The notes beneath the pieces were generated by a model that was not told where the DNA came from, did no database searches, and saw nothing but the letters and a program-made list of their open reading frames with translations. Shown here piece after piece: positions 20,966-21,664 of a stretch of 64,000 bases of DNA. Position 1 is the stretch's first letter; the number at the start of each line of letters is the position of its first letter. The stretch is from Escherichia phage E26. Made by a program: the position numbers and the translations under genes. The stretch is from the sequence record MN655998.1. One strand, 5' to 3'.

Positions 20966-21664
20966 CTAACCACGGGTATAGTGTTCCAGAACAACTGTCA
21001 GATGGATATATTCTAATAGATCTTTCCAAAAGTCAACATCTGGTTCTTCCGGCATACCGTTTTTCTTTGCCTCTTCACTCGCGAGTTTAACACGCTCGTA
21101 GAGATCTTTCAATTCTTCCCGCACATTATCAAAGGTTCTTTCTCCTAACTTACACGCTAAAATAGAAGAACATCGCGCGAGCGGGAATTGTAGATCACCA
21201 GTCTGATAGATTTCAAGTAGCTGATAACCAACACGCAGAGCATGAGAAAGGTCTTTCCAGTTACTGAAATACTTTTCAGATTTGGCTACCTGCTTTTTGA
21301 GATAGCCAGACAAACCCCACATACCAACATGATAGAATTTATCACGATGTGTTCGGATGTATTCCCATTCTCTGGAGGATTCAATCAACATGTCACTAGG
21401 CGCGTGTACCATGTCAATAGCGCCAATATCGCCTTTACATGCCAGATTGATAAACCGTTTCAGACTAAACATATTAACGTCAATATCGTCTTTGGTGTTC
21501 TTGATACCTTGACCGCTAGTGCTTTGGTCATAGTGTTCTTTCATCGATCCTAAGATAATTTCTTTCGCAGTCGGAACAAAGATACCACGATAATCTTTAT
21601 CGGAGTTTTCAGTATCAAGGCCGTATAAGTGAGATCCGAAAACCATTTTAACCATTGTATGCAT
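20966..21664 (-). CDS. nucleotidyltransferase-fold protein (Pol-beta superfamily) of unknown specificity
   Basis: N-terminal FGSHLYGLDTENSDKDY fits the hG[GS]x9-13DxD nucleotidyltransferase signature, followed by a helical domain. Confidence 0.5.
   Translation of the reverse strand: MHTMVKMVFGSHLYGLDTENSDKDYRGIFVPTAKEIILGSMKEHYDQSTSGQGIKNTKDDIDVNMFSLKRFINLACKGDIGAIDMVHAPSDMLIESSREWEYIRTHRDKFYHVGMWGLSGYLKKQVAKSEKYFSNWKDLSHALRVGYQLLEIYQTGDLQFPLARCSSILACKLGERTFDNVREELKDLYERVKLASEEAKKNGMPEEPDVDFWKDLLEYIHLTVVLEHYTRG

Follow-up and report, generated by a model that had tools for sequence, protein, structure and literature searches.

NrdC.11 of a Krischvirus phage: a short-form homologue of the RlaP nucleotidyltransferases with a possible role at RNA 3′ ends

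The window considered here is the whole analysed stretch of 64,000 nucleotides from Escherichia phage E26 (MN655998.1), which corresponds to approximately 31.9–95.9 kb of phage RB49. A single open reading frame occupies positions 20966..21664 on the minus strand in the ORF listing of the window; it starts with ATG, ends with a stop codon at 20966–20968 and encodes 232 amino acids. Its position and length are those given in an earlier sequence-only reading of this DNA, in which no strand was stated. The sequence GAGG, read as a Shine-Dalgarno element, lies 8 nt 5′ of the ATG (21673..21676, minus strand) and is identical in RB49 and GEC-3S, and in alignments the start site is the same in the homologues. 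The surrounding 3 kb are 96–97% identical to 58 Krischvirus records, among them RB49, GEC-3S and PHB13, and on this sequence identity the window is assigned to Krischvirus, the RB49-like relatives of T4. In RefSeq the RB49 counterpart is RB49p098 (NP_891669.1), gene nrdC.11, with the product name “nucleotidyltransferase” and the note “similar to T4 tk.-11”; it is the same gene, differing at 4 of the 232 residues. Pairwise Nei–Gojobori comparison of the gene with RB49 and GEC-3S gives a dS of 0.08–0.15 and a dN of 0.002–0.007, for a dN/dS of 0.02–0.05. The GC content of the ORF equals that of the window, no second copy was found in the window, and in the closest records (H26 and H27) tblastn places nrdC.11 at a single site each. 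The ORF is a genuine and strongly conserved gene; on the ORF call, the Pfam and PHROG matches described below, RB49p098 and dN/dS it is recorded here as the coding sequence of Krischvirus nrdC.11, an RlaP-family (PF10127) Pol-beta nucleotidyltransferase.

The interval between nrdC.11 and the upstream gene vs.6 holds two candidate signals. A terminator-like hairpin followed by a T-run was located by scanning at 21717..21741 on the minus strand (−18.2 kcal/mol, z −4.25), and in GEC-3S this hairpin is annotated as a terminator. The 3′ arm of this hairpin is overlapped by a sigma-70-like promoter candidate, TTGGCT-17-TATGAT with TG (21695..21723, minus strand), which comes from a consensus scan only and lies in a stretch that is fully conserved. 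Across 21655–21760, 106 nt that span the intergenic region, 105 positions are identical in three phages despite a coding dS of approximately 0.14, which suggests that the candidate hairpin and promoter are functional.

On the minus strand the genes follow the order endolysin (M15 peptidase), vs.8, a small ORF, vs.6, nrdC.11, three small paralogous ORFs, regB, vs.1, vs, tk.4 (macro domain) and tk. The ORF had earlier been placed in the early region beside a GrcA-like gene, and both points hold: nrdC.11 lies within the early-gene block, and its upstream neighbor (vs.6 in RB49; 21751..22167, minus strand, 138 aa) matches Pfam Gly_radical at 1.5e-16, through its last 43 residues only. For the T4 gene, the supplements of PMC9697503 record early transcription and detection of the protein. 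The N-terminal 75 residues of the GrcA-like protein have no Pfam match. The three tandem small ORFs just downstream of nrdC.11 (20112–20944, minus strand), listed with 64, 86, and 131 aa, each match PHROGs 6261/15978, whose function is unknown, and form a local paralogous family filling the space between nrdC.11 and regB. The macro-domain protein tk.4 (18171–18626, minus strand) is named “A1pp phosphatase” in RB49 and T4, and macro and 2H domains have been described as processors of RNA-repair by-products (PMC7824862). In this phage group the endolysin (22851–23240, minus strand) belongs to the M15 peptidases (Peptidase_M15_4) and not to the T4 e-type lysozymes. Homing endonuclease genes repeatedly adjoin nrdC.11: mobD is directly downstream of it in T4 (L009, 14430–15209), an HNH_3/NUMOD4 ORF is directly upstream of the homologue in a metagenome relative (L006, 3951–4547), and in vB_EcoM_011D4 (MT478991.1, H24) an annotated homing endonuclease lies inside the matched 3-kb stretch that includes nrdC.11. 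The gene may therefore be a homing target.

The sequence-only reading did not recognize a T4 counterpart for this ORF. This has to be corrected, as the protein is homologous to T4 NrdC.11 (T4p095, UniProt P39242; BLASTP 3e-39), with which it shares the N-terminal motifs and the C-terminal bundle, and homologues occur in some 1,700 phage records (1686 by tblastn). The T4 product has 336 aa and is likewise annotated “nucleotidyltransferase.” The two genes differ in location: T4 nrdC.11 lies between nrdC.10 and mobD, while the Krischvirus gene is flanked by vs.6 and by the small ORFs that precede regB. A single copy and significant full-length similarity define the NrdC.11 orthologous group of T4-like genomes, and on the BLASTP match and the copy counts the window gene belongs to it. 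T4-like phages carry nrdC.11 as an accessory gene that is widely conserved among them; the stretch from nrdC.11 to mobD.3 is missing from viable genome-reduced T4 mutants (PMC9825161). Many T4-type entries in GenBank and UniRef (P0016, P0019, P0036, P0038, P0054, and others) are named “thioredoxin” and one is named “HNH homing endonuclease”; these names have probably spilled over from the neighboring genes nrdC and mobD.

Profile searches place the protein in a named family. It matches PF10127 (RlaP, “RNA repair pathway DNA polymerase beta family”) with 53.4 bits (E 3.7e-14) against a gathering cut-off of 23 bits, residues 7–190 aligning to model positions 24–197 of 249, and PHROG 388, “nucleotidyltransferase,” at E 1e-78, so that the family match is far above chance. 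T4 NrdC.11 also passes PF10127, with 46.6 bits. Mycobacteriophage I3 gp3, which scores 180 bits and is thus a canonical RlaP, is reached from the window protein by tblastn at 2e-7. All 120 matches listed in a search of 5.8 billion proteins carry PF10127, and an exhaustive HMMER search of 1.84 billion cluster representatives returned 3517 relatives at E ≤ 1e-3, 189 of them at E ≤ 1e-30. NCBIfam models gave zero matches at E ≤ 1. Among the PADLOC models the sole match was spurious (CARF/HEPN, 10.5 bits) and none was to a nucleotidyltransferase, leaving the identification as a known defense-system protein unsupported. The ORF is almost certainly an RlaP/NrdC.11 homologue.

The catalytic residues expected of such an enzyme can be followed through the alignments. 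The expression G[GS]x9-13Dx[DE] matches the window protein once, starting at G10, in agreement with the minimal Pol-beta signature of GS followed by DxD that had been noticed from the sequence; residues 9–25 read FGSHLYGLDTENSDKDY, and the motif proper (G10 S11 … D22 K D24, codons 10–24) covers 21593..21637 on the minus strand and is invariant across 36 homologues. A third catalytic carboxylate is offered by D60-I-D62 (codons 60–62; 21479..21487, minus strand), within a conserved NTKDDID at the start of strand 62–67, both aspartates being invariant in alignments A1–A4; either D60 or D62 would be the third metal ligand. The positions invariant in the 36 T4-type and Krischvirus-type sequences include G10, S11, D22, D24, N56, D60, D62, D84, W136, K137, H141, and R144. 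As far out as I3 gp3 and Bacillus phage Hobo gp137, G10, S11, D22, D60, D62, G78, K137, and R144 are still invariant, although the invariance of D24 does not extend to I3 gp3. The signature required for RlaP, hG[GS]x9-13Dx[DE] with a third conserved carboxylate, is present, and the family has been described as having “three strictly conserved aspartic acids” (PMC12776372). As judged from these alignments the two-metal acidic set of Pol-beta nucleotidyltransferases is intact, so that the window protein is predicted to be catalytically active.

An AlphaFold2 model built on the 36-sequence alignment (mean pLDDT 91.1, pTM 0.87) divides the protein into two domains. Approximately residues 1–115 (21320..21664, minus strand) form an alpha/beta nucleotidyltransferase domain with strands at 2–9, 24–30, 44–48, 62–67, and 93–96, whose fold matches HalB, KNTase, LinB, and AadA. 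A nucleotidyltransferase beta-sheet with its acidic triad had been set as a structural test, and the fold and the intact acidic set are seen in the model and the alignments. The helical domain that had been expected to follow is also there: the model has helices over residues 116–230, and approximately residues 116–232 (20969..21319, minus strand) make up a C-terminal HEPN/KNTase-C-like bundle with the family-invariant K137…H141..R144 at its start. Identification of this bundle as a HEPN RNase was rejected, as it is without the conserved Rx4-6H motif; the sole Rx4H of the protein (R107–H112) falls outside the bundle, with H112 replaced by T or S in homologues, and the bundle has K137/H141/R144 instead. 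A Foldseek search of the PDB is headed by the ANT(4′) kanamycin nucleotidyltransferase (E 3e-5) and Hailong HalB (E 6e-5, TM 0.47–0.50), followed by LinB, the structural-genomics nucleotidyltransferase 3c18, AAD(9)/AadA, and Tam41. These matches are modest, at 11–14% identity, and in the model they fix the architecture, a nucleotidyltransferase domain with a HEPN-like bundle as in KNTase, and not the subfamily. The PDB set used for the fold and sequence searches was without the PfRlaP crystal structure, and neither phmmer with the window protein nor hmmsearch with a 14-sequence profile returned anything real from the PDB sequences. Of the two routes to a subfamily suggested beforehand, the profile route gave an answer, PF10127 RlaP, and the solved structures gave an architecture. 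Among predicted viral structures, TM values of 0.6–0.84 are reached by many proteins of phages, giant viruses, and baculoviruses (HE65), and the fold is therefore common in viruses.

The one unusual feature of the Krischvirus protein is its length. Close homologues are nearly all of 305–345 aa, while the Krischvirus protein and the homologues P0002, P0140, P0151, and P0215 have 231–258 aa. The T4-type proteins (approximately 336 aa) carry an alpha/beta domain of approximately 100 aa between residues 130 and 240, which the great majority of the 150 best-scoring of the 3517 representatives possess and the 232-aa form lacks, as do the four other short homologues; the window protein thus does not have the full T4-type architecture. 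In alignments A1 and A3 the junction where this domain would sit falls at codons 128–135 (21260..21283, minus strand). A model of one T4-type protein (mbbfee4bb3b60, P0041; pLDDT 84.9 overall) has a helix at 137–148, five strands between 154 and 208 and a helix at 213–235 in the added segment. Residues 131–240 of this model form a compact alpha/beta module with pLDDT 79–91. Some residues of the block are nearly invariant in the long forms, and the absence of the block may change substrate recognition and choice in the Krischvirus form.

Against the Pfam model the short form aligns colinearly, whereas T4-type proteins match only to model position ~142, so that, with the family model as reference, the block counts as an insertion. 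A 234-aa homologue with 56% identity covers PF10127 model positions 23–229; it is encoded on a metagenome contig with shared neighbors, namely an M15 peptidase, a vs.8-like gene, and a Gly_radical gene, then an inserted HNH endonuclease and the nucleotidyltransferase. More short forms appear in the alignment at 37–41% identity. A recent degenerative deletion was considered as the origin of the short length and rejected on the dN/dS of 0.02–0.05, the syntenic 56%-identical short form, the more distant short forms and the Pfam colinearity. From the substitution pattern and the alignments, strong purifying selection maintains the short Krischvirus form, and the form is not in decay.

What such an enzyme might do is suggested by its bacterial relatives. 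Burroughs and Aravind are said to have made the original RlaP prediction in 2016. The family is named for its linkage to RNA ligase genes, and its predicted task was to replace, ahead of ligation, the nucleotides that cleaved RNA has lost (PMC7824862). Two Pseudomonas members, PfRlaP and PaRlaP, have been assayed in a preprint of December 2025 (PMC12776372). They label RNA and do not label genomic DNA, synthetic DNA, or E. coli proteins; one or two NMPs are placed on the 3′-OH with little base preference, dATP also being accepted, and Mn2+ or Co2+ is the preferred metal. The favored substrate is the 5′ half of a nicked tRNA mimic, with single-stranded RNA also extended and rRNA-sized species labeled, and RlaP raises the aminoacylation of a tRNA repaired after the loss of one nucleotide. 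In that study RlaP is put forward as an antidote to ribotoxins of the “smart” kind, RloC among them, that trim the RNA after cutting it, and its similarity network places T4 NrdC.11 in cluster 5 and the assayed enzymes in cluster 1a (PMC12776372).

The window protein shares with these bacterial enzymes the Pfam family and the conserved aspartates. In RlaP the nucleotidyltransferase and helical domains form a cleft and the last helix packs back on the N-terminal domain; in the model of the window protein the two domains are clear and would likewise leave a cleft between them. It differs from them in sequence cluster (5 versus 1a) and in having no RtcB/RtcA or other ligase operon. By analogy with the assayed members, Krischvirus NrdC.11 probably adds nucleotides to RNA 3′ ends. 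It would be an early-expressed, Mn2+/Mg2+-dependent, template-independent RNA 3′-end nucleotidyltransferase, in which D22, D24, and D60/D62 would coordinate the two metal ions and bind the NTP, while a basic cleft between the nucleotidyltransferase domain and the HEPN-like bundle (K58, K124, K128, K137, H141, R144) would hold the RNA 3′-OH end, to which one or two NMPs would be added. Some “smart” host anticodon nucleases, such as RloC, cut tRNA and also remove a nucleotide; on infection, Pnk would clean the ends, NrdC.11 would return the nucleotide to the tRNA 5′ half and RNA ligase 1 would seal the break. That NrdC.11 serves in this way as a third step of phage tRNA repair with Pnk and RNA ligase 1 is proposed tentatively, at somewhat less than an even chance. 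We infer the substrate, the addition of one or two nucleotides and the tRNA-repair role of the Krischvirus enzyme, and the explanation as a whole, joining RlaP/NrdC.11 homology, RNA 3′-end addition and tRNA repair with Pnk and Rnl1, stands in our estimate at about even odds.

Neither pseT nor rnlA is in the window, which also contains no tRNA genes. RB49 encodes pseT (polynucleotide kinase/phosphatase), rnlA (RNA ligase 1), a second small kinase-like ORF and 57B; rnlA and pseT lie approximately 75 kb from nrdC.11. The gene 57B is labeled “RNA ligase” in RB49. By tblastn totals, RB49 RnlA and PseT are each found in exactly 58 records at identities of at least 95%, which is also the number of Krischvirus records and of records with the short nucleotidyltransferase at 95–99%, and the counts of nucleotidyltransferase and RnlA homologues by host genus are almost identical. 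This association of the nucleotidyltransferase with Rnl1 and Pnk is genome-level co-occurrence only, confounded by common descent within the Straboviridae. No RNA ligase adjoins the nrdC.11 homologue among the surrounding genes here, in T4, in Bacillus phage Hobo, or in mycobacteriophage I3; the context that gave RlaP its name is therefore missing, an RNA-ligase neighborhood being a trait of only part of the family.

Other destinations for added nucleotides have been weighed against tRNA repair. The enzyme could tail mRNA, placing one or two nucleotides on the 3′-OH of host messages, or of early phage messages cut by RegB and dephosphorylated by Pnk, and so provide 3′ exonucleases with a toehold that replaces the work of the host poly(A) polymerase. 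Krischvirus nrdC.11 is on the same strand as regB and three small ORFs away from it, but the T4 homologue is not near regB. During mRNA decay the 5′-OH termini left by RegB are processed by Pnk, PNPase needs a 3′-OH end, and the host poly(A) polymerase is “probably inactivated after T4 infection” (PMC3014915); one or two nucleotides would, however, make a weak toehold. The assayed RlaP enzymes do extend single-stranded RNA and label rRNA-sized species, yet they prefer the nicked tRNA mimic (PMC12776372), and mRNA tailing is considered unlikely. The acceptor end of tRNA might be served instead, with the protein acting as a phage substitute for the CCA-adding enzyme that repairs or builds 3′ CCA ends, for example against host toxins that trim or block them. 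An enzyme of this superfamily that adds 3′ nucleotides without a template would suit this task, but the protein has no Pfam match to the CCA-adding or PolyA_pol families, and the lack of tRNA genes in the window argues against it, as does the reliance of T4 tRNA maturation on the cca enzyme of the host. Separate CCA-adding enzymes for acceptor-end repair are found in jumbo phages (PMC7824862). Given the tRNA mimic, however, the assayed RlaP enzymes favored the 3′ end on the anticodon side over the strand on the acceptor side (PMC12776372). CCA repair is considered distinctly unlikely.

The structural matches point to two further chemistries. Hailong HalB (PDB 9dbh, 9dbi, 9dbj) is the best solved structural match, of similar size and with GS/DxD at the same N-terminal position, and a counter-defense synthase of this kind could, by producing short oligodeoxyadenylate or a different oligonucleotide, hold a DNA-gated channel of the Hailong type shut, or jam immunity based on nucleotide signals in some other way; of the alternatives this comes nearest to the proposal made from the sequence alone. 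HalB itself is a host defense component that makes protein-primed oligo-dA. The resemblance is one of fold rank only: identity is 12–14%, no sequence or profile match to HalB is detectable at E ≤ 10, PADLOC yields no nucleotidyltransferase match, and neither sequence-level HalB homology nor a HalA channel partner was found. The sequence family, moreover, is RlaP, whose tested members add only one or two nucleotides and leave proteins unlabeled (PMC12776372), and a HalB-like synthase is judged very improbable. The same low probability is attached to the more specific proposal that the Krischvirus form, lacking the ~100-aa domain and having a HalB-like fold, is a free-standing oligonucleotide or 3′-tail synthase directed against nucleotide- or DNA-gated immunity, for example by replenishing oligo-dA and holding Hailong channels shut, and does not repair tRNA. 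The best Foldseek E-value belongs to ANT(4′), and LinB, AadA, and AAD(9) also match; in ANT(4′) and related antibiotic nucleotidyltransferases the nucleotidyltransferase domain is fused to a HEPN-like four-helix bundle, as in the window protein, which might in that case adenylylate a metabolite or an antibiotic-like compound. These enzymes act on small molecules, however, and with TM values of 0.26–0.43 (all below 0.45), 11–13% identity, and no Pfam or other family-level match to antibiotic nucleotidyltransferases, only the superfamily architecture is shared. The benefit to a lytic phage is also hard to see, and small-molecule transfer is hardly credible.

Addition of nucleotides to RNA 3′ ends, with tRNA repair as its proposed purpose, remains the preferred reading, and it alters what had been made of this ORF. 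The first interpretation was wrong in treating the gene as unrecognized, and its chemistry, the making or modification of nucleotide signals or the nucleotidylation of host targets, is probably wrong too, since the two assayed bacterial RlaP enzymes modify 3′-OH ends of RNA but neither DNA nor the proteins of E. coli (PMC12776372). Its suggestion of a defense or counter-defense effector survives in part: a counter-defense role is plausible, and PADLOC gives no real match. It had also allowed that homology might reveal a known enzyme, and to some extent this has happened, as the RlaP family had been described before and nrdC.11 already carries its nucleotidyltransferase label in RefSeq. The result is thus mainly one of clean-up, in which the ORF is no orphan effector and takes its place as a conserved accessory gene in a named family, with the missing ~100-aa domain as its distinguishing feature. 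If RlaP-type enzymes indeed replace the nucleotides that “smart” anticodon nucleases excise, the Pnk/Rnl1 pathway of T4 would gain a third, overlooked component. Should that repair role be true, the natural short (Krischvirus) and long (T4) forms would offer a ready comparison for establishing what the extra domain recognizes.
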